In this document: piece by piece, positions 2,214 through 13,167 of the stretch
Numbering within the stretch: position 1 is the first letter of the stretch
Layout of the letters: every line of letters begins with the position of its first letter
The notes under the pieces: generated by a model
What the model saw: only the letters and a program-made list of their open reading frames with translations
Told to the model about the DNA's origin: nothing
Databases searched by the model: none
Assembly: GCA_024650005.2 (NCBI GenBank)
Contig: CP122380.1
Location: 1,632,001 to 1,696,000, forward strand
DNA: 64,000 nt
Direction: 5' to 3'
Origin: Candidatus Bathyarchaeum tardum
Lineage (GTDB): Archaea; Thermoproteota; Bathyarchaeia; Bathyarchaeales; Bathyarchaeaceae
Made by a program: the position numbers and the translations under genes

Positions 2214-3410
2214 GTGGATTTCACTATTTTGAATAACCCAAAGCAGGTAAACAAATTGATAAACGAAGAGTCAAGCAAGTGGAATCACCTATTTACTGCA
2301 GTTTTAATCATTCTTATCGTAAACACTGGAGTATTCATAGTAGGGTTTTGGAACAATCAAAATCAACTAGAAACAATGGAAACCACAATTACTGAACAAA
2401 ATAACAAAATCCAAGACTTGGAAAATCAACTAGAAATTTTTGACGTAATCAATGAAACAGGTTTAATGCCGTGGCCTACCATTTACAATCAACTAAAAGA
2501 TTCGGTTGTTCTGATCAAAACTGACCTAGGATTAGGTTCAGGATTTATTTATGACACCAAAGGACATATTGTAACTAATTATCACGTAATCGAAAGCGCA
2601 GAAAATATAGAAGTTACATTCTTAGACGGAAACATTTCATCAGCTGAAATAATTGGCCTGGACATTTACAGCGATTTAGCAATAATCAAAGTGAACCCGG
2701 AAACTACAATATTAAAGCCAGTAGTTCTTGGCAGTTCATCTGAATTAATTGTAGGAGAACCAGTTGCAGCAATGGGGAACCCGTATGGTCTAAGTGACAC
2801 AATAACTGTGGGTATTGTTTCATCTCTTCAAAGAAGCTTAGAAGCGACAGGAGGATACTTAATTATAGACATAATCCAAATTGACGCCGCAATCAATCCG
2901 GGTAACTCAGGGGGTCCATTAGTTAACTTGCATGGTCAAGTAGTAGGACTGAACACAGCCATACAATCAGAAACAGGTTCATTTACAGGAATAGGGTTTG
3001 CAATTCCCTCAGATACTATTAAACGTGAAATTAATGATTTAATTGAAACTGGCAGTTACAAACATCCGTGGTTAGGCATATCAGGATTAAAAGTGAACTT
3101 AGCATTAGCGGATGCCATTGGCTTGGATAAACCTCAAGGAATACTAGTAATTGATGTCACGTCTGGCAGCCCGGCAGATTTAGCAGGTATAAGAGGCTCA
3201 ACCGAAACAGGATTTGTTGATGGCATTGAAACTCCACTAGGTGGCGACGTGATTATTGAAGTCGATGGCATCAAAGTTATCAGCATGAACGATTTGGCAA
3301 TTTATATGGAACAAAATACCAGTCCAAAAGATTCAGTTGTTTTCACAATAATCAGAGACGGCCAAAAAATCGACATAACGGCAACCTTGGGACAAAGACC
3401 CCAACCATAA
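2214..3410 (+). CDS. htrA: membrane-anchored HtrA/DegP-like serine protease with PDZ domain
   Basis: TNYHV, DLAII and INPGNSGGPL catalytic triad motifs; N-terminal TM plus coiled coil; C-terminal PDZ. Confidence 0.93.
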   Translation: MDFTILNNPKQVNKLINEESSKWNHLFTAVLIILIVNTGVFIVGFWNNQNQLETMETTITEQNNKIQDLENQLEIFDVINETGLMPWPTIYNQLKDSVVLIKTDLGLGSGFIYDTKGHIVTNYHVIESAENIEVTFLDGNISSAEIIGLDIYSDLAIIKVNPETTILKPVVLGSSSELIVGEPVAAMGNPYGLSDTITVGIVSSLQRSLEATGGYLIIDIIQIDAAINPGNSGGPLVNLHGQVVGLNTAIQSETGSFTGIGFAIPSDTIKREINDLIETGSYKHPWLGISGLKVNLALADAIGLDKPQGILVIDVTSGSPADLAGIRGSTETGFVDGIETPLGGDVIIEVDGIKVISMNDLAIYMEQNTSPKDSVVFTIIRDGQKIDITATLGQRPQP

Positions 3411-3422
3411 ATAGTACCAAAC

Positions 3423-4682
3423 TTATTCCATTTTAGTCAAAATGGCTTTAGATTGTCTCTTTCCCCCAGCCAAATATTCTATCATGTCATCGTCAAATTC
3501 AAACCAACTGGATAAGCCTGCAGCCATTTCAATGTTATTTTGGAAAATAACCTTCAAGTAAGGAAAAACTTGTTTGACACTTCGGATAGCGCCAACGTGA
3601 CATTTCTTGCGGATTTTCATGCCCATACGGAACTGTAGAGCACGTTCCCCCTTGGTACTCGAAAGCATACGAATTTTACTTGGAAAACGGAAAGGAATCC
3701 AACCTGAAGATTTGCTGTTTTGTCGAGCAGCTGTTACACCTGAAGTTGTAAAATCCATAACATACTTCAGAAAACCCCAGTTTTGAGTATCACGGATTCT
3801 TTGACGATAAATATCGGCCAAAGCCAGAGAATTCATTGCTTTAACTAGGTCATGAGGATCGTTAAGATGATAAGGAGCATTTTCGTAAACCCAATGAAAC
3901 AACATATCAGGGTCCACATCAACACTGCCTGCAGCTTTTTTTGCTTCCCAACCATCTCGAGAATAAAGTATGGTTTGCATGACTTTGAAAATTTCTTCTT
4001 TCCGGTCACGCCCAGATAACCATGCAACATCTTCTTTTGTTAAATGTGTTTTTCCCTGTGCCAAGGCTTGAAGGTCATTAACTGCAGACCTGACATCACG
4101 TCCGGCACGCTCAACAATTAAGTGCAGAGCTTCTTCGTCAGCGTTGATTCCTTCTTTTTCACAGATTTGCTTAAGGTGACTGATGCCTTCACGAATTGTG
4201 GGATTCTTAAATCCAATAACTTCAGAATATTTACGGATTGTAGTAAAACGACTACTAAAAGCGTCATTTGCAGTGAGAATAATGGGGCTTTTACTTTCTT
4301 TCAAAATTTTTGTGAGTTCTTTAATTCCACCACGGTCAACTTGCCCGGCGATTCCGTCAACTTCATCCAACAGGATTAATCGTTTTCCACCAAACAAAGT
4401 AGCATACTGAGAAGCCAGACCAGCAAAACGTTTGATTGCATCTGCTGTCCGGTAGTCGCTGGCGTTTTTTTCGATTAATTCCATGTTTAGTTCTTTAGCT
4501 AAAGTTTCAACTGTTACTGTTTTACCTACCCCTGGAGACCCATGCAAAAGAACTGCCCGTTTTTCGGGAATTCCACAATCCCAAGATTTTAGCCAATCAC
4601 GAACCATCTCTTTGGATTTTTTGTTGCCTACTATTTCGTCTAGGCTTTGAGGCTTATGCTTTTGGGTCCAAGTGGTGGACAA
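3423..4682 (-). CDS. rfcL: replication factor C large subunit
   Basis: WTQKHKP, GSPGVGKT, NASDYR, LLDEVDG; directly downstream of rfcS. Confidence 0.95.
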   Translation of the reverse strand: MSTTWTQKHKPQSLDEIVGNKKSKEMVRDWLKSWDCGIPEKRAVLLHGSPGVGKTVTVETLAKELNMELIEKNASDYRTADAIKRFAGLASQYATLFGGKRLILLDEVDGIAGQVDRGGIKELTKILKESKSPIILTANDAFSSRFTTIRKYSEVIGFKNPTIREGISHLKQICEKEGINADEEALHLIVERAGRDVRSAVNDLQALAQGKTHLTKEDVAWLSGRDRKEEIFKVMQTILYSRDGWEAKKAAGSVDVDPDMLFHWVYENAPYHLNDPHDLVKAMNSLALADIYRQRIRDTQNWGFLKYVMDFTTSGVTAARQNSKSSGWIPFRFPSKIRMLSSTKGERALQFRMGMKIRKKCHVGAIRSVKQVFPYLKVIFQNNIEMAAGLSSWFEFDDDMIEYLAGGKRQSKAILTKME

Positions 4683-4686
4683 TCAG

Positions 4687-5658
4687 TTATGCTCCTTGTG
4701 TGAGTTCTTGACCAGCTTCTGTAATTCGAGCAAGCAGGGCACTTAACTGAACTTCCACGTCGGCCCCTTGAACCATGCGAAAATCAGCTTCGCCTATAGC
4801 TTCACTGAGGGTAACTTTCCAAGAATCAGGCAACATCGACCGAAAAACTGCACCATGAATCTGCTTGATAATGTCACTTCCAGCTACGCCGTACTTCATT
4901 ATCATTTCTCGAAGCTGTTTTCGGGCAGCTAAAAAGTCGCCTTTCATAGCAGTTTTTAGCATCTCGTTAACATCTTCAGGGTTTGCATGACCAATAACAG
5001 AATAAACAGTTTCAGCATCAATCACTTTACCCATAGAAGCTGCAGCTTGAATAGCATTAGTTGCACGTCGAAGATCACCTTGGCTGACTTCAAAGATTGC
5101 GTCATAGCCTTCATCTAAGATTTTGATGTTTTCTTTTTTTATAATGTTACGCAAGTAACAGTTTTGGTCCTGCTGTGAAAGATAACTAAACCGGAAAGGG
5201 GCACACCGTGACTGTAACGGATCAATAATTTTGCCACTGTAGTTTGCAATCATAACGAAACGGCAAGTTTCTGTGAAGCGTTCCATGGTTCGCCTTAAAG
5301 CTTGCTGAGCATCTGAAGTCATGTTGTCAGCTTCATCAAGAATCAATATCTTGAAAGGAATTTCACCAATCGAACGGGTTCGAGCAAAAGTTTTCACAGT
5401 TTCCCGAACCATCTTTATTCCACGTTCGTCACTGGCGTTCAGTTCCATAAGGTGTTCTCGGTAACTGTCGCCGTACAGGTCTCGAGCCATACACAAAGCT
5501 GCAGTTGTTTTTCCAGTTCCTGGGGGACCAGCAAAAATGCAATGAGGAACATTTTTTGCTTTTGCGAAACTTTTCAGGCGGTCAACAATTTCTTTCTGGT
5601 TAATAATTTCGCTTAATGATTTGGGGCGATACTTTTCAGCCCACATCTCGTAACTCAA
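4687..5658 (-). CDS. rfcS: replication factor C small subunit
   Basis: WAEKYRP, GPPGTGKT, ELNASDERG, LDEAD and QSRC motifs; no intein. Confidence 0.97.
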   Translation of the reverse strand: MSYEMWAEKYRPKSLSEIINQKEIVDRLKSFAKAKNVPHCIFAGPPGTGKTTAALCMARDLYGDSYREHLMELNASDERGIKMVRETVKTFARTRSIGEIPFKILILDEADNMTSDAQQALRRTMERFTETCRFVMIANYSGKIIDPLQSRCAPFRFSYLSQQDQNCYLRNIIKKENIKILDEGYDAIFEVSQGDLRRATNAIQAAASMGKVIDAETVYSVIGHANPEDVNEMLKTAMKGDFLAARKQLREMIMKYGVAGSDIIKQIHGAVFRSMLPDSWKVTLSEAIGEADFRMVQGADVEVQLSALLARITEAGQELTQGA

Positions 5659-6341: not shown

Positions 6342-6670
6342 ATTTGGGTACCAAATAATAAAGCGCCTATAAGTTTGGATATTTTCAAGGAGTTATGTTT
6401 TGGACGGTTTTATTGATGTATCGAAACTTTAGGAAAAACAATAGTTTAATCAAATATCTATTTAAGCAGTTTTAAATGATGAATAATGGTTTATATCATA
6501 AGATCGTAAAAAATGTGATATTGTGATATTAAATTTTGGGTTATCATGATACTTAAAAAAATCAAATAAACAAATATCATGTTTTTATGTCAAAATTTAG
6601 CTTAAGTATAAATACGCAACCGATAATTTCAGTTTGCTTAAGATCAAATAAAAGAAAGATTGGATATTAA

Positions 6671-6814
6671 ATGACAAAAAATGCAGAAAAAACCATCTGC
6701 ACTGTTTGTGGCTTCGAATTTGAGGCAAAAGATGGAATAAACGTTTCGTGCGAGGGACAAAAATATGTTGCATGCCCAAAATGTGGAAGTACCAAACGAT
6801 CAAGAATCTTCTGA
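6671..6814 (+). CDS. small zinc-ribbon protein, 47 aa, not in the ORF track
   Basis: MTKNAEKTICTVCGFEFEAKDGINVSCEGQKYVACPKCGSTKRSRIF with CxxC...CPxCGS; ends 20 nt before the next gene. Confidence 0.7.
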   Translation: MTKNAEKTICTVCGFEFEAKDGINVSCEGQKYVACPKCGSTKRSRIF

Positions 6815-6834: not shown

Positions 6835-8286
6835 ATGATTGATTTCGTTGAGCCCGCTAAACCATTTAAACCATTTACCCTTAGTTTCTGGGAAAGACAA
6901 TATGGATCAGAGATTCCGTCTTTCGAATTTAATAGAATTAAAGAATTTTATAATGCTAAACAAGCCAAACGAGCAAACGTAAGTGGTTACGTAAAAAAAG
7001 TTGGTTCTCAACGGTTTCTTCTTTTACCCACTGTGCATAATCCAACTTATCTACTGTGTATTTGTGCAGAGGGGGTAAAGGTTCCTCCAGAAAACAGCTA
7101 CGTTAATGTTGAGGGACAAACCCGCTGGTCTCAATTAAAAATAAGTTCAGATGGAACATATAGAAATGATTCAGACAAAGAAATATCAGTTGAACAATGG
7201 CTGCCTGACACCCCTGATTGGCAAAACAAAATTAAATCTAACATGGATTTTAAAGAGTTCAAAGAAGAAGTTTTTGCAAGTTTTTCCAATATCGAGCCGT
7301 TAGTCCAAAATTTCATAGCATCCCAAATCGTGGGATGCCCAAAATATGATGGCTTTTTTGGCGGGCTTAATCTTTGCCTTTACGATTCAACACAAAATGC
7401 GCTGGCAACAACTCTAGCTAAAGAAATTCGGCGAATTGTCCCAAGAGACATTGGAAAACCCCACACAATAAAGACCCCATATGGAAATGTGCCTTTGAGG
7501 TGCAACTATAACCTAGTTACCATTGATGCAGACACAAAACTTTCACCCAAAGTCAAACTAGCCATGGAAAAAAGAATTGCAAACATTGGATATGACGAAT
7601 TATCATTATATTTTGGGAGCAAAAAAAACCTGCCAAAAACTCTTGAAGAACCCCCTTTTCAACTATCAGATTTTCCGACTACACTTAATGAAGAAGTTGA
7701 ATACCTCAAAAAACGAGCTGACCCCAGCTTGGACGCTTTCAAGTACATGCAAATTCAACATTACATTGCACCAATAATTACCAATACATCAGACATGATT
7801 GACAAAGTCCAAGAAACTTTGGTAAAGTTACCAGAAAGATACGATGTTTCTCCCCAATTGCTTGCACGTTTCAAGTTTCTTGATGCAAGTTATTATGGTA
7901 AACCTCAATCAGTAATGCGTTTGGCTTTAACAAAGACCCGTACAGAAAATCTTGAAAAAATAAATGACAACAACGTTAAGGACGCAATTCAAATGTTTGA
8001 AGAAAATTTTGATTACAACTTTGAACTGTGGCGCGACATGTTCCCAAAAGAAAGTTTAGGAGCAGGTACAGATATTCTATTAAAACAATCACCTGATGAA
8101 AGAAAAATTCTTAGAATAATTGACAAACTTCAAGGAACTAAAGAAAAATGTGTAAGCATTAATGAAATAAGTGAGGGTATTCCTCGTTTGAAAAAAGAAA
8201 TGCTTGAAGAGTTGTTAGAAGAATTATCTAAGAGAGGGTTAATAATAGAGAAACGGTATCACTGTTACAGTTTGATATCTTTTTAG
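6835..8286 (+). CDS. divergent MCM-like protein, probably ATPase-inactive (OB-like N-terminus, degenerate AAA+, C-terminal wHTH)
   Basis: Collinear similarity to the downstream MCM with Walker A, Arg finger and sensor 2 replaced; stop codon abuts the GINS ATG. Confidence 0.65.
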   Translation: MIDFVEPAKPFKPFTLSFWERQYGSEIPSFEFNRIKEFYNAKQAKRANVSGYVKKVGSQRFLLLPTVHNPTYLLCICAEGVKVPPENSYVNVEGQTRWSQLKISSDGTYRNDSDKEISVEQWLPDTPDWQNKIKSNMDFKEFKEEVFASFSNIEPLVQNFIASQIVGCPKYDGFFGGLNLCLYDSTQNALATTLAKEIRRIVPRDIGKPHTIKTPYGNVPLRCNYNLVTIDADTKLSPKVKLAMEKRIANIGYDELSLYFGSKKNLPKTLEEPPFQLSDFPTTLNEEVEYLKKRADPSLDAFKYMQIQHYIAPIITNTSDMIDKVQETLVKLPERYDVSPQLLARFKFLDASYYGKPQSVMRLALTKTRTENLEKINDNNVKDAIQMFEENFDYNFELWRDMFPKESLGAGTDILLKQSPDERKILRIIDKLQGTKEKCVSINEISEGIPRLKKEMLEELLEELSKRGLIIEKRYHCYSLISF

Positions 8287-8886
8287 ATGAAAGGAGAAAA
8301 GGGTTTGCCAGCTGACGCAAAAAAAGCGATTCAAGACGCGGATTTCATGTTCGAAAATGCGATCGTTAAGATAGTGGCAAACAGGAACAACCCCGCAATA
8401 GAGCTTCCAGAAATGACAGTTGGTCCGTTCACTGAAGGAAAAGAATACGAAGTTAGATTTTGGGTAGCCAAAGAACTAAAAAAAGCGGGAATCGCCCGAA
8501 TCCGAATCGATGAACCACTTGATTTAATGACTCTTAACAAGATTCATTGGAAAGAGCGCATGCAAGCTTCACAAAAAGTTATGTCGTTGCCTGAAAATTT
8601 TTATCCAAAGCTTCGACGGTTCCTTGAAGAACTAAGCAAAGATGCAATCAAGAACCTAGAAAAAAGAAACGATTACGAAAAAGCAAACAATCTTTCCGAA
8701 GACATAACAAGAATGAGACTCAAAAAGATAGTTTCGTTGGCTTCATCAGGAAGAGGCGACCAAACTGGTCCAATATTGCAGAATTTAACAAAAGAAGAAA
8801 AGTTTGTGTATAACTGCTTGCACAAGGTCCTAAGCGAATGGAAAGAAGAAATCCTAAAACTACAAGGAAGCGACAAACATGACTGA
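8287..8886 (+). CDS. GINS subunit (Gins23/Psf2-type)
   Basis: B-domain first (VGPFTEGKEYEVRFWVAKEL), then LPENFY and RLKKIVSLA...NLTKEE; overlaps the mcm start. Confidence 0.88.
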   Translation: MKGEKGLPADAKKAIQDADFMFENAIVKIVANRNNPAIELPEMTVGPFTEGKEYEVRFWVAKELKKAGIARIRIDEPLDLMTLNKIHWKERMQASQKVMSLPENFYPKLRRFLEELSKDAIKNLEKRNDYEKANNLSEDITRMRLKKIVSLASSGRGDQTGPILQNLTKEEKFVYNCLHKVLSEWKEEILKLQGSDKHD

Positions 8887-10915
8887 AGAAACAATAACAA
8901 TTGACCCAGAAGCAATATTTCTGGATTTCTTCAAGATGGACAAATACCGTGAACGGATTTCCAGCATGGCAGTTTCGGGAAACACATCATTTGTTGTAGA
9001 TTTTGATGAACTTTTAGCATCTGAACCTAAACTTGCTCAACTCCTTATGGACAAGCCTGACGAATATCTGGAATACGCAAACAGGGCAGCTAAAGCCCAG
9101 TTGCAAATCGAAGAACAAGAATACGCTGAAGAAACTAAAACAATCACAGTAAGATTCAAGGGGCTTCCGGAAGCCACACCTTTACGTATCCTAGGTTCAA
9201 AACACATTGGAAAATTTGTAATGCTAGAGGGAATAGTTGTTCGAGCCAGCCCAGCTCGACCAATGGTAATGGAGGCAGCCTTCAAATGCAAATGGTGCGG
9301 AGCCATGGCGTTTGTTACACAGTCAGGACCGTTTTTAACGGCACCTAATGCATGTAGTGCTCCAGAATGTAGAAGAAAAAGTGCCTTTGATTTTGTTCAA
9401 GAAGAATCTACATTTATTGACTCCCAAGACGTTCGCATTCAAGAACGCCCTGAAGATTTGCCTCCAGGTCAGCTTCCAAGATGGCTTGACATTAAACTTC
9501 TAGAACGTGACCTTGTTGACGCAGCCCGTCCAGGAGACCATATTGCTGTTGTAGGAATTACCAGAGCTCATGCTACCCGATTGCCAAAAGTTGGTCAACT
9601 TAGATCCTTCACGTTACAGTTGGACACTAATTACATTGACGTAGAAAGCAAAGAACCAGAAAAGATTCTTATCACGCCTGAAGAGGAAGAACAAATTCTG
9701 GAGCTATCCAAAGATCCCGAAGTTCATAACAAGATTTTGCAATCTTTGGCACCTTCAATATACGGTAACGAACACCTCAAAGAAGCCGTCATGTATCTGT
9801 TGTTTGGAGGAACAGCTAAACACTTCCCAGATATCACCATCCGTGGTGACATGAACGTTCTGATTGTAGGTGACCCAGGTACTGCAAAGTCTCAACTTTT
9901 GCAGTATGTATCTAAGATTGCTCCCCGTGGTTTGTATACGTCGGGTCGTGGAACTACTGCGGCAGGTTTGACTGCTGCGGTTCTTCGTGACAAGACAGGC
10001 GGCATGACCTTAGAAGCCGGAGCCCTAGTTTTGGCAGATAAAGGTGTTGCTGCTATCGACGAAATGGACAAAATGCGTACAGAAGACCGTGTCGCCATTC
10101 ACGAAGTCATGGAACAGCACACTGTTTCGATTGCAAAAGGTGGTATTGTTGCAACCTTGAACGCTCGCACATCGGTTTTGGCGGCGGCGAACCCCACGTT
10201 GGGACGTTACGACCCATACAGGACAGTAAGTGAAAACATTTCGTTGCCAGTTACTATCCTTTCACGTTTTGACCTGATTTTTGTTCTACGAGACGTCCCA
10301 GAAGAAGAAAAAGATGCCCGAACAACAGAACACATCCTTGATTTGCACAGACGAGGAACAATCCCTACTGAGGCTCCGATTAATTCTGAGTTGTTCCGAA
10401 AGTATGTTAGTTACTCCAAAAACATGCATCCAACTCTTTCTCAAGAGGCTCTGGATTGCTTGAAAGATTTCTACTTGCGTATGCGTGCAGCCAGCGAAAC
10501 TGAGGGAACACCTGTAGCCATTACTGCAAGGCAGTTAGAGTCCTTGGTTCGTGTTGCAGAAGCCAGAGCACGTATAGCATTAAAAGATAAAGTTGAACTT
10601 GAAGATGCAGAACATGCCATTGAGATCATGAAGATTTCCCTTGAACAAGTTGGAATCGACATTTCTTCACAAAAATTTGACATCGACATTATCATGACCG
10701 GCAAACCAAAGAGTCTACGGGATAAGCTGTCAATAATTTTGGGCTTGATCACTACCATGGAAAAGGAAACCGGAATGGTCGACAAAGAACGCCTAATGGA
10801 GCGGTTACAAACTGAGTACGATGTATTAAGTGGAGAAGCTGAACGTATGATTAATCAGATGCTAAAAGAAGGAACATTATTTGAGCCCAAGAATGGTTTC
10901 CTCAAGAAGACTTGA
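8879..10915 (+). CDS. mcm: replicative helicase MCM
   Basis: Zn finger, GDPGTAKS, IDEMDK, AAANP, LSRFD, TARQLESL, C-terminal wHTH. Confidence 0.98.
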   Translation: MTEETITIDPEAIFLDFFKMDKYRERISSMAVSGNTSFVVDFDELLASEPKLAQLLMDKPDEYLEYANRAAKAQLQIEEQEYAEETKTITVRFKGLPEATPLRILGSKHIGKFVMLEGIVVRASPARPMVMEAAFKCKWCGAMAFVTQSGPFLTAPNACSAPECRRKSAFDFVQEESTFIDSQDVRIQERPEDLPPGQLPRWLDIKLLERDLVDAARPGDHIAVVGITRAHATRLPKVGQLRSFTLQLDTNYIDVESKEPEKILITPEEEEQILELSKDPEVHNKILQSLAPSIYGNEHLKEAVMYLLFGGTAKHFPDITIRGDMNVLIVGDPGTAKSQLLQYVSKIAPRGLYTSGRGTTAAGLTAAVLRDKTGGMTLEAGALVLADKGVAAIDEMDKMRTEDRVAIHEVMEQHTVSIAKGGIVATLNARTSVLAAANPTLGRYDPYRTVSENISLPVTILSRFDLIFVLRDVPEEEKDARTTEHILDLHRRGTIPTEAPINSELFRKYVSYSKNMHPTLSQEALDCLKDFYLRMRAASETEGTPVAITARQLESLVRVAEARARIALKDKVELEDAEHAIEIMKISLEQVGIDISSQKFDIDIIMTGKPKSLRDKLSIILGLITTMEKETGMVDKERLMERLQTEYDVLSGEAERMINQMLKEGTLFEPKNGFLKKT

Positions 10916-10932: not shown

Positions 10933-13167
10933 TTGAAAGTAGAAGAACTGCCCCTTCATGATTCAGCTAAACAGGTTTTAATCCAGTTAGGTCTTACTGA
11001 ACTGTATCCACCCCAAGAAGAAGCAGTGCATGCAGGTGCGTTAAACGGAAAAAATCTAGTTTTGGCAAGCCCCACCGCTTCGGGCAAAACCTTGGTTGCA
11101 GAATTGTGTGCTCTAAAACACATTTTGGAAAATGATGGAAAGGTTTTGTATTTGTCTCCCCTGCGGGCGTTGGCTAGTGAAAAATATGAAGAATTCCAAA
11201 AATACACCAGTATACGAAAACCAAATGGACGAAAAATCAGCATTGGAATAAGCACTGGAGACTTTGACGGCAGCGACCCATGGATGGGGAAACATGATGT
11301 TGTTATAACTACTAACGAGAAAGCAGATTCTCTTCTTCGGCACCGAACCAAATGGGTAAACGATATCACTCTTGTCGTTGCTGATGAGGTTCATCTTTTG
11401 AATGATGCAAGCCGTGGACCAACCCTTGAGGTGGTTTTGGCTCGTCTGATGCAGGTTAATCCTGATGTTCAGTTGTTGGTTTTGAGTGCAACCATAAAAA
11501 ATGTTGGAGAAGTTGCAGATTGGCTGAAAGCAATTTCAGTTACTACAGAATGGCGACCTGTAACTCTCCGAGAAGGAGTAATCATCGGGGATGAAATTCA
11601 TTTCAAAGATGGTGGAGCACAAAAAATCGATAACAGCGCCAAAAATCCTACATTAAACTTGGCAGTTTATACAGTAAAATCAGGAAATCAAGCTTTAGCT
11701 TTTGCTGGCACTAGAAGAAATTCTATAAGTTTGGCAAAAAAAATTGCGACCAAAATTAAGCCTCATTTATCTAAGCCTATGAAACGTTCTTTGAATCAGT
11801 TGGCTGAGCAAATTCTTGCAACCGGTGAGCGAACAAGACTCGGAGAACAGCTAGCAGAAGTTGTCAGAGGTGGTGCAGCGTTTCATCATGCAGGATTAAG
11901 CGGTGGTCACCGAAAAATTATTGAAAACTCGTTCAAAGAAGGAAAAATTAAGGTCTTAACAGCTACTCCAACGTTAGCCATTGGAATGAACCTTCCAGCG
12001 CGGGTGGTAATAATTAATGAATATCGCAGGTACGAGCCGGGATATGGGTATTATCCGATTCCAGTTCTTGAGTATAAGCAGATGGCGGGACGAGCCGGAA
12101 GACCCAGATACGACAAGTTTGGAGATTCCATTCTGGTAGCAAAAACAGAAGATGAACGTGACTACCTTATGGAAAATTATATTCTTGCAGAAACAGAACA
12201 AATCTGGTCCAAACTTGCTGTAGAAAAGATTTTGCGATCCCATGTTTTGGCTACTATTGCGTCAGATTTTGCTCACAGCGAACAAGGAATCTACGAGTTT
12301 TTTGGCAAGACATTTTATGCTCACCAGTATGACCCTCGGGCAATAAAGGGAGTTATTCAGAAAAGTTTGGGGTTTTTGTTCACAGAAAAAATGATTGAAC
12401 TGGACAAAAACAACATTTTAGCTACTCCCTTTGGACGAAGAGTCTCTGAGCTGTATATCGACCCTTTAACTGGAGTTACCATAAGGGATGCTTTAACGAA
12501 CCGTGCGGATAACGTAACTGATGTTAGTTTTCTGCACATGATCTCCCGCACTCCAGATATGTACCCCAAATTACGTCCATATAATACTGAAATGGATAAC
12601 CTGCAATTCTTTATTGAAGACCACCAAAACGAGTTCATGTTTGATCTTCCGGACCCGTGGATGGACCGAATCGGGTTTGAAGAATTTCTGGGTGAAGCTA
12701 AAATGGCGTTGGTTCTTGATTCGTGGATGAACGAAACCACAGAAGATCAAATGATAGAACAATTCAAAGTTCAGCCCGGAGATCTTTACAGGTTAATTTC
12801 AAACGCTAAATGGCTGGTTCATGCTTCCCACGAGCTAGCGTCCTTGTTCAAACACAAAGACTTGCTACAGAAATTGTCTAGGTTAACAGTAAGAATTGAG
12901 AAGGGAGTAAAACCCGAACTGCTTTCCTTAGTTTCACTGCAAGGTGTTGGAAGAGCCCGCGCCAGAGTGCTATTCGATTCGGGAGTCAAAACAATTGACG
13001 ATATCAAAACAGTTCCATTATCAAAGTTAGTTGGCTTGCCTTTAATTGGAGCAAAAGTTGCTCAAAAAATAAAGAAACAAGTAGGTGGTATTGTGGAAAT
13101 GCACGAAACTCAGAGCCTAGATCCTAAAAAACAAGCAAAGAAACAACGGTCATTAACAGACTTTTAG
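10933..13167 (+). CDS. hel308: Hel308/Hjm Ski2-like DNA helicase
   Basis: PTASGKT, DEVH, LSAT, FHHAGL, QMAGRAGR, GVGRARAR domain V. Confidence 0.95.
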   Translation: MKVEELPLHDSAKQVLIQLGLTELYPPQEEAVHAGALNGKNLVLASPTASGKTLVAELCALKHILENDGKVLYLSPLRALASEKYEEFQKYTSIRKPNGRKISIGISTGDFDGSDPWMGKHDVVITTNEKADSLLRHRTKWVNDITLVVADEVHLLNDASRGPTLEVVLARLMQVNPDVQLLVLSATIKNVGEVADWLKAISVTTEWRPVTLREGVIIGDEIHFKDGGAQKIDNSAKNPTLNLAVYTVKSGNQALAFAGTRRNSISLAKKIATKIKPHLSKPMKRSLNQLAEQILATGERTRLGEQLAEVVRGGAAFHHAGLSGGHRKIIENSFKEGKIKVLTATPTLAIGMNLPARVVIINEYRRYEPGYGYYPIPVLEYKQMAGRAGRPRYDKFGDSILVAKTEDERDYLMENYILAETEQIWSKLAVEKILRSHVLATIASDFAHSEQGIYEFFGKTFYAHQYDPRAIKGVIQKSLGFLFTEKMIELDKNNILATPFGRRVSELYIDPLTGVTIRDALTNRADNVTDVSFLHMISRTPDMYPKLRPYNTEMDNLQFFIEDHQNEFMFDLPDPWMDRIGFEEFLGEAKMALVLDSWMNETTEDQMIEQFKVQPGDLYRLISNAKWLVHASHELASLFKHKDLLQKLSRLTVRIEKGVKPELLSLVSLQGVGRARARVLFDSGVKTIDDIKTVPLSKLVGLPLIGAKVAQKIKKQVGGIVEMHETQSLDPKKQAKKQRSLTDF

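Follow-up and report, generated by a model that had tools for sequence, protein, structure and literature searches.

In a 64,000-nucleotide stretch of the archaeon Candidatus Bathyarchaeum tardum (contig CP122380.1, positions 1,632,001 to 1,696,000; hereafter the window), we describe a protein that keeps the fold and domain order of the replicative helicase MCM and has lost the signatures of its ATPase. The gene lies at 6835–8286 on the + strand (ATG start, TAG at 8284–8286) and encodes 483 amino acids (P0001), upstream of the genes for Gins23 and the canonical MCM. It belongs to an unnamed, strongly reduced family of non-catalytic MCM paralogs; such paralogs are known as a kind. Its role may be that of an accessory of the helicase machinery, a reading that we weigh against several others below.

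Profile and structural evidence for MCM ancestry

BLASTP found no significant pairwise similarity between the paralog and the MCM of the window (best E 13), and the single sequence searched against Pfam had one match, to the MCM_C winged helix (E 0.0081), whose 16.4 bits fall short of the cut-off of 27. The NCBIfam MCM model matched through its final 120 positions (561–680), to paralog residues 361–479 with E 0.0019, and phmmer with the single sequence against the PDB found solely the winged helix of SsoMCM (2m45, E 0.022). Two family profiles were also used, one built from 28 clusters (A1) and one from 56 diverse members (A2). With these the 2m45 match strengthened to E 0.0012 (A1) and 1.1e-6 (A2), so that the C-terminal winged helix-turn-helix claimed in a preliminary description of the gene, made from the letters alone, is borne out. 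A2 further matched archaeal MCM 8x7t_D (E 2.6e-9), SsoMCM 4fdg (E 1.6e-7) and the winged helices of Mcm7, MCM8 and RPA32 in the PDB, and it reached the C-termini of ~680-residue true MCMs in genomes of the class (E 1e-14 to 1e-4). When A2 was compared with a 20-sequence MCM alignment by hhalign, residues 296–480 aligned with MCM 500–677 (probability 97.5, E 8.1e-12). Because these hhalign and PDB profile matches are significant, the lid and winged helix of the paralog are, by sequence, homologous to those of MCM.

For the OB and AAA+ blocks, which make up the N-terminal 300 residues, hhalign gave no significant sequence match to MCM (E 0.05–0.6). The corresponding evidence is structural. An AlphaFold2 (AF2) model of the whole protein, made with no templates, reached a predicted local distance difference test (pLDDT) score of 75 and a predicted template modelling (pTM) score of 0.72. 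Foldseek placed it against at least 497 PDB entries at E <= 1e-3, and all among the matches listed were MCM subunits, with 8rif_7 best (E 2.6e-13) and SsoMCM 8eag_F at E 2.3e-10; the MCM/AAA+ fold expected in the preliminary description thus came out on top of the structure search. Residues 28–300 were also modelled separately by AF2 on their own 22-sequence alignment (pLDDT 73), and this model gave at least 432 PDB matches at E <= 1e-3, again MCM subunits for all among the matches listed (best 8b9d_4, E 1.3e-8; Sso/Pfu MCM 9nuk_A, E 2.1e-8). The predicted OB/AAA+ region therefore shares the MCM fold, with significance by fold despite the insignificant sequence match.

The preliminary description had aligned the protein block by block with the MCM two genes downstream. 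All of the peptides that it quoted are present in both proteins, and global hhalign recovers the same block order, including the pairing of PENSYVNVEG with RPGDHIAVVG in the OB fold. Foldseek and hhalign together support its view of a diverged MCM paralog ordered as OB, AAA+-like core, lid and winged helix. MCM core models, by comparison, do not recognize the family: the paralog falls below the gathering score for Pfam MCM (PF00493) and MCM_OB (PF17207), neither model is matched by any of the 56 family members at E <= 0.01, and both are absent among the best 25 of the 68 families found at E <= 1. An identity as an Orc1/Cdc6 initiator was considered separately and rejected, as there is no Cdc6_C or AAA match, the protein has an OB fold, and its best fold matches are to MCM and not to ORC or Cdc6.

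Absence of the MCM ATPase signatures

Catalytic motifs were counted in family members of at least 400 amino acids (n=93) and in the MCM alignment (n=20). Walker A was scored in its MCM-type form, G..G..K[ST], since the general pattern G....GK[ST] fits merely 6 of the 20 MCMs. The MCM-type motif is present in 19/20 MCMs and in none of the 93 family members. Sensor 1 (AA[AS]NP; 18/20 MCMs) and the SRFD arginine finger (20/20) are likewise absent from all 93, and the Walker B pattern D[ED]xDK occurs in two of them against 18/20 MCMs. The Walker A, MCM Walker B, sensor 1 and SRFD signatures are thus lost, in agreement with the catalytically dead paralog that had been proposed.

At the P-loop position the paralog reads YDSTQNAL, in columns that are variable or gapped across the family. 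The register that places GGLNLCLYDSTQNAL...IVPR of the paralog against ...IAPR of MCM is the same in HMMER, local hhalign and global hhalign, and because of this agreement the loss of Walker A can be called robust; the statement that the Walker A lysine is gone holds in each of these registers. For the arginine finger, which had been described as changed to Asp, the outcome is divided. There is no Arg or Lys at that place in either register, while the pairing with Asp hangs on a one-residue shift: hhalign sets the SRFD Arg opposite L277 and the SRFD Asp opposite D279. LVTIDAD (residues 227–233) was considered as a possible Walker B remnant; its columns are not conserved in the wide family.

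As far as these signatures tell, the paralog is non-catalytic and its MCM ATP site is unusable. The protein descends from MCM. Since it fails both the catalytic and the model tests that define MCM, we do not class it as an MCM helicase.

Domain architecture and conserved positions

The protein begins with a conserved tail predicted to be disordered (residues 1–27; 6835–6915, +), in which pLDDT lies below 50 for residues 1–26. Its consensus, PFKPFxLRFWERxYGSEF, is conserved in A1, and R18 and E27 (P0041 numbering) show no variation in the distant set A5. Peptides that fold on a partner typically look like this, and we infer that the tail may be an interaction peptide. A helix and a five-stranded OB fold follow (residues 28–124; 6916–7206, +), assigned from the AF2 secondary structure and from Foldseek matches to MCM. 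The helical subdomain A and the zinc subdomain B of MCM are absent, with only this one helix and five strands before residue 125; consistently, global hhalign begins at MCM residue 115 and gaps the zinc-finger segment.

The predicted AAA+-like alpha/beta core (residues 135–295; 7237–7719, +) is reduced to ~160 residues from ~230 in MCM, and the register of its strands beta2–beta5 is not fixed by the core profile alignment (E 0.05–0.6). Next come the MCM-type AAA lid (residues 296–402; 7720–8040, +; hhalign E 8.1e-12) and the archaeal-MCM-type winged helix (residues 410–480; 8062–8274, +; MCM_C, 2m45). MCM_lid (PF17855) is matched by 3 of the 56 members at E <= 0.01, and the best winged-helix matches at E <= 1 are MCM_C (12/56) and MCM_WH_arc (PF21120; 8/56). 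Conservation extends along this body. Among the 56 members G177 and R369 are invariant, and G176 is kept in 55, E255 in 52, D279 in 51 and P281 in 45. The stretch G355-[K/R]356-P357 is kept in 47, 38 and 48 members respectively, and hhalign aligns its basic residue with MCM sensor 2.

Purifying selection on the paralog

The ratio of non-synonymous to synonymous substitution (dN/dS) was estimated by NG86 for nine sequences, the window gene and eight orthologs of 58–89% identity. It is 0.122 against the ortholog in the relative G016 and 0.08–0.17 against six metagenome orthologs; for the seventh (L059) dS is saturated and gives no estimate. All nine compared sequences are intact. The preliminary description had named neutral decay as an outcome that would tell against it, and these values contradict decay: with a dN/dS of 0.12 the gene is, judging from its substitutions, maintained under purifying selection and not decaying.

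Gene order around the paralog

The paralog is followed on the + strand by Gins23 (8287–8886, 199 aa; NCBIfam Gins23 E 6.6e-31, Pfam PSF2_N and Sld5), the canonical MCM helicase (8879–10915, 678 aa; Pfam MCM 1.9e-95 plus MCM_N, MCM_OB, MCM_lid and MCM_WH_arc) and the Hel308 helicase (10933–13167; NCBIfam PRK02362 E 4.6e-253, Hel308 equivalog E 3.3e-179). Its TAG (8284–8286) directly abuts the Gins23 ATG (8287), just as had been claimed, and the coordinates confirm that it is packed against this string: Gins23 and MCM overlap by 8 nt (8879 versus 8886), and the other gaps are 17–20 nt, 17 nt being the distance from MCM to Hel308.

The preliminary description also had the paralog heading the operon. 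It does lie upstream of Gins23-MCM-Hel308, but it is probably second in the operon and not first, because a conserved open reading frame (ORF) for a 47-aa zinc ribbon with a CxxC ... CxxC pattern (6671–6814, +) lies 20 nt upstream. This mini-ORF, which may be the true first gene, scores E 5.3e-4 and 20.4 bits against Pfam Zn_ribbon_8, under the 34.4-bit cut-off. Both of its CxxC pairs are kept in G016, and it is found 5′ of the paralog in all seven metagenome loci of at least 58% identity, interrupted by contig ends in two. About 60 nt further 5′ lies a TATA-like box, TATAAATA (6607–6614, +), a putative operon promoter that is kept in G016 together with its surrounding bases. Relatives without the zinc-ribbon/paralog cassette have a conserved TTTTATATC box before Gins23. 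From this layout, a transcript that starts at the zinc-ribbon ORF and carries the zinc ribbon, paralog, Gins23, MCM and Hel308 is likely. Ten sequencing datasets hold the paralog; all are DNA metagenome contigs and none is RNA.

A small Zn_ribbon_8-like ORF also adjoins the paralog in another subclade, there convergent at the 3′ end (L035:3061–3450, L039:8878–9129, L040:8561–8857). The presence of a zinc-ribbon neighbour in two subclades may be coincidence or may reflect a functional pairing.

Upstream of the operon, on the opposite strand, lie a flavin reductase-like gene and the genes for RFC small (4687–5658) and RFC large (3423–4682). Together with Gins23, MCM and Hel308, the two RFC genes give the window a cluster of replication genes, and an HtrA-like protease with a PDZ domain (2214–3410, +) adjoins RFC large. 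The source genome is a single contig of 2.15 Mb, 98% complete, and contains one true MCM (one PF00493 match), one copy of the paralog family, two GINS-type genes and two Orc1/Cdc6 genes.

Taxonomic spread and neighbourhoods of the family

A first search for relatives gave 34 clusters of 30–98% identity, all unnamed or annotated as 'hypothetical'. Against 1.84 billion representatives, A1 retrieved 136 clusters (50% identity) at E <= 1e-3, 54 of them at E <= 1e-30 and none longer than 503 aa. Members with a taxon name belong to Bathyarchaeota, Methanomethylicia, Nitrososphaerota/Thaumarchaeota, Odinarchaeota and Thorarchaeota and are without exception annotated as hypothetical; protein language-model matches hint at a possible euryarchaeal range. 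Related-locus searches added little: A1 gave no confirmed relative among genome contigs, and A6 (3 sequences) returned three Bathyarchaeia or Thermoproteota loci and no new taxa. Subclades of the family are 25–35% identical to one another. One genome, G109, holds a fragment that covers profile positions 222–344 (L013 / L042:8212–8508; E 1.6e-21) with one TAG and one TAA, apparently a decayed copy.

Within the subclade of the window gene, gene order is well preserved. G016 (89% identity) keeps the zinc ribbon, the paralog and Gins23-MCM-Hel308 in order, and the order zinc ribbon, paralog, Gins23 is kept in all seven metagenome loci of 58–88% identity, where Gins23 is visible in six and MCM in three, the remainder stopping at contig edges. 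One metagenome variant departs from this simple picture: L059 (3–287, 771–938, 935–2386, 2379–2498, 2495–3124) has a full Gins23 C-terminus upstream of the zinc-ribbon/paralog cassette and a 39-aa N-terminal Gins23 remnant between paralog and MCM, which suggests a junction rearrangement. In the wider family, the near-identical loci L071 and L072 agree in everything upstream of the paralog and differ directly downstream of it (from 7437), a synteny break at the 3′ end of the gene.

Five genomes of the same genus that lack the paralog have 190–1680 bp before Gins23, empty or filled with unrelated ORFs. The slot between flavin reductase and Gins23 holds, in G001, a 419-aa protein with a hydrophobic N-terminus, encoded on the opposite strand (L048:10138–11397, −) and, in G003, short ORFs only (L049:4600–5990); it is ~200 bp long in G020 and G013.

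Candidate roles of the paralog

We tentatively favour a reading in which the paralog would serve the helicase machinery as a stoichiometric, non-enzymatic accessory, acting without ATP turnover through MCM-type contact surfaces that it has retained. The candidates are those sides of the OB fold and core at which MCM protomers normally meet their neighbours, and the winged helix, through which MCM makes contact with partners. By binding MCM protomers or an MCM partner it could modulate helicase assembly, loading or removal. Work in Sulfolobus reportedly found contact between Orc1/Cdc6 and the winged helix of archaeal MCM. The cassette of zinc-ribbon mini-ORF and paralog found in this subclade sits between the putative promoter region and Gins23. 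A predicted complex of MCM residues 100–600 with paralog residues 28–410, computed with alignments and without controls, gave ipSAE 0.00/0.00, which speaks neither for nor against binding.

Several observations weigh against such a role. The family is rare. Among 301 genomes of the class, A2 detected full-length copies in nine, besides the G109 fragment, and a sample of 201 genomes from the whole phylum had the family in three (E <= 1e-18). With A1 it was seen in two of the 25 genomes of its own genus searched (G000 included, so one of 24 others) and in two of 41 relatives, again with G000 included. Outside the subclade there is no GINS, MCM or zinc-ribbon gene nearby in any of seven other genomes or 17 distant metagenome loci. 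The neighbours there are TBP, a glycosyltransferase, an ABC transporter, CO-dehydrogenase subunits, dCMP deaminase and a UvrD-like helicase, with an AbiEii-like protein, a type I restriction subunit and one integrase besides, and no neighbour is common across subclades. The five same-genus genomes without the paralog all keep Gins23-MCM-Hel308, and most of them also have RFC and flavin reductase next to it. Between the window genome and G016, dN/dS is 0.047 for Gins23, 0.031 for MCM and 0.040 for Hel308, so that the value for the paralog stands 3–4 times above those of its core replisome neighbours. Finally, an AT-rich stretch, TTAATAATA (8243–8251), lies within the end of the paralog coding sequence ~40 nt before the Gins23 ATG and could be an internal promoter for Gins23-MCM.

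Since five same-genus genomes keep the operon without the paralog, MCM function does not need it, and since the operon is kept in such relatives, the paralog must have been inserted at the start of an operon that was already there. It is thus an accessory insertion and not a core subunit. The GINS-MCM linkage is restricted to this subclade (G016 and 7/7 metagenome loci of at least 58% identity), so that the synteny survey called for by the preliminary description supports the linkage close to home and finds it absent in the seven other genomes and 17 distant loci. Its suggestion of a step toward a heteromeric MCM fits poorly with presence in 9/301, 3/201 and 2/25 genomes of class, phylum and genus and with the unlinked copies of the other subclades.

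These patterns raise the main rival, a horizontally moving accessory gene, perhaps derived from the MCM of a mobile element, whose function would be unrelated or even antagonistic to the replication of the host (e.g. a decoy titrating MCM or its loader) and whose place in the operon would be accidental. The sparse, patchy distribution is what it would lead one to expect, as is the alternation within genus g21 of two subclades only 25–27% identical. The variable length and unrelated content of the flavin reductase–Gins23 slot point the same way, as do copies beside an integrase (L065), an AbiEii-like gene (L041) and a type I restriction subunit (L064) and the broken remnant in G109. Searches for a mobile origin, on the other hand, gave little: IMG/VR holds no relatives of the family, PADLOC recognized a known defence system in none of eight members, and PHROGs matched one of eight, covering merely a helicase C-terminus. 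Viral fold matches are weaker than those to cellular MCM (1.4e-10 versus 2.6e-13), the neighbours are mostly housekeeping genes, and the place in the operon is kept, under purifying selection, in orthologs down to 58% identity. Taking both sides together, we regard this rival as unlikely, if a serious contender.

The preliminary description had put the gene forward as a candidate archaeal analog of MCM-BP or MCMDC2. Taken furthest, the family would be the prokaryotic counterpart of MCM-BP and would bind MCM protomers or the loader to chaperone, load or unload the helicase; the zinc-ribbon mini-protein beside it might then provide in trans the missing zinc subdomain. A protein language model does place an MCM_bind cluster among the look-alikes of the paralog (rank 11, score 0.84), which we treat as a lead only. 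Pfam MCM_bind (PF09739) is matched by none of the 56 members at E <= 0.01, where 12 families were found, and is absent among the best 25 of the 68 families at E <= 1; the analogy is not supported by this result. We consider it a rather doubtful proposal.

Hel308 in the same gene string invites a different explanation, in which the protein would assist Hel308-type or UvrD-type helicases in repair or recombination and not the replicative Cdc45-MCM-GINS (CMG) helicase, much as the non-catalytic MCM-like proteins MCMDC2 and MEI-217/218 do in eukaryotic recombination. At one locus (L036) a UvrD-like helicase is indeed encoded 150 nt downstream of the paralog in the same orientation, yet this link is seen in one of four loci of that subclade, and Hel308 follows MCM in relatives with or without the paralog (5/5), so that the association with Hel308 came with the operon. 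A repair accessory therefore seems a shade more doubtful still.

The retained and conserved OB fold and winged helix would also suit a self-contained DNA-binding protein independent of MCM, whether a homo-oligomeric ring or a winged-helix regulator, e.g. an origin or transcription factor, and the winged helices of some members score against TrmB, LexA and MarR-type models as well. The best winged-helix matches are nevertheless the MCM-specific models given above, and conservation spans the whole MCM-like body, beyond the winged helix; we hold this explanation to be improbable. A decaying, functionless relic of a duplicated MCM, which extreme divergence (BLASTP E 13), the loss of all catalytic motifs and the G109 fragment with its two stops might suggest, is scarcely credible in view of dN/dS of 0.08–0.17 with 9/9 intact, 136 clusters at 50% identity with invariant columns, and a confident structure model.

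Relation to known MCM proteins

The closest comparison for the paralog is archaeal MCM itself, such as SsoMCM and the MCM of the window. The likeness lies in the fold, in the order OB, AAA+ core, lid and winged helix, and in the sequence homology of lid and winged helix. The differences are considerable. The paralog has 483 residues against 678, with a core ~70 residues shorter; it is without subdomains A and B, Walker A, the MCM-type Walker B, sensor 1 and SRFD; it has no PF00493 or PF17207 match; and it is not universal, as its 9/301 class genomes attest. The portion of a 2025 survey of the Asgard replisome drawn on here counts MCM among mostly single-copy genes (PMC12680538). Through our search of the literature on archaeal MCM paralogs, MCM/GINS, and Asgard and Bathyarchaeota replication, we found no description of the family, though supplements may hold one.

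Among archaeal paralogs, MCM2 of Methanopyrus kandleri (3F8T) is the nearest parallel, being likewise an MCM paralog of ~500 aa beside a canonical MCM. M. kandleri MCM2 is reportedly inactive by nature. The profile match to 3f8t_A is weak, however, and consists of one lid helix (E 0.048, profile positions 352–392). The depositors of 3F8T name it a Cdc46/Mcm-family ATPase, and a review, in the passages drawn on here, shows its structure with no mention of inactivity and, in a figure legend, places it among structures with subdomains A, B and C plus the AAA+ domain, whereas P0001 falls below every MCM core model.

Eukaryotes offer two further comparisons. MCMDC2 and Drosophila MEI-217/MEI-218 are non-catalytic MCM-like proteins of meiotic recombination and partners of active helicases. 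Compared by description only, they resemble the paralog in being MCM-derived with degenerate ATPase motifs, and they differ in being eukaryotic and in their recombination context, as opposed to the GINS-MCM string here. MCMBP, in the parts of its description drawn on here, has an MCM-like domain without Walker A, and the legend of its truncation scheme marks Walker B and an arginine finger (PMC9018068). An MCM-like domain without Walker A is thus common to MCMBP, so described, and the paralog, a resemblance that is not proof of common descent; the Walker B and arginine finger marked in that legend are absent from the paralog. MCMBP is also broadly conserved in eukaryotes, whereas the paralog family is rare. 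If it were nonetheless a true counterpart of MCM-BP, regulation of the helicase by a dead MCM paralog would predate eukaryotes, the family being found in TACK and Asgard archaea.

For the replicative helicase of eukaryotes, archaeal MCM is the simple model normally used, and a maintained MCM-fold protein without ATPase motifs is a concrete candidate for non-catalytic regulation of the archaeal enzyme. Rarity limits this claim to an accessory, and no general feature of archaeal replication is implied. The family also illustrates that a heavily stripped MCM fold, with no A/B subdomains and a core of ~160 residues, can persist. The partners for a direct biochemical test of the proposed accessory role, in the Gins23-MCM string, are encoded alongside the paralog in the same genome.

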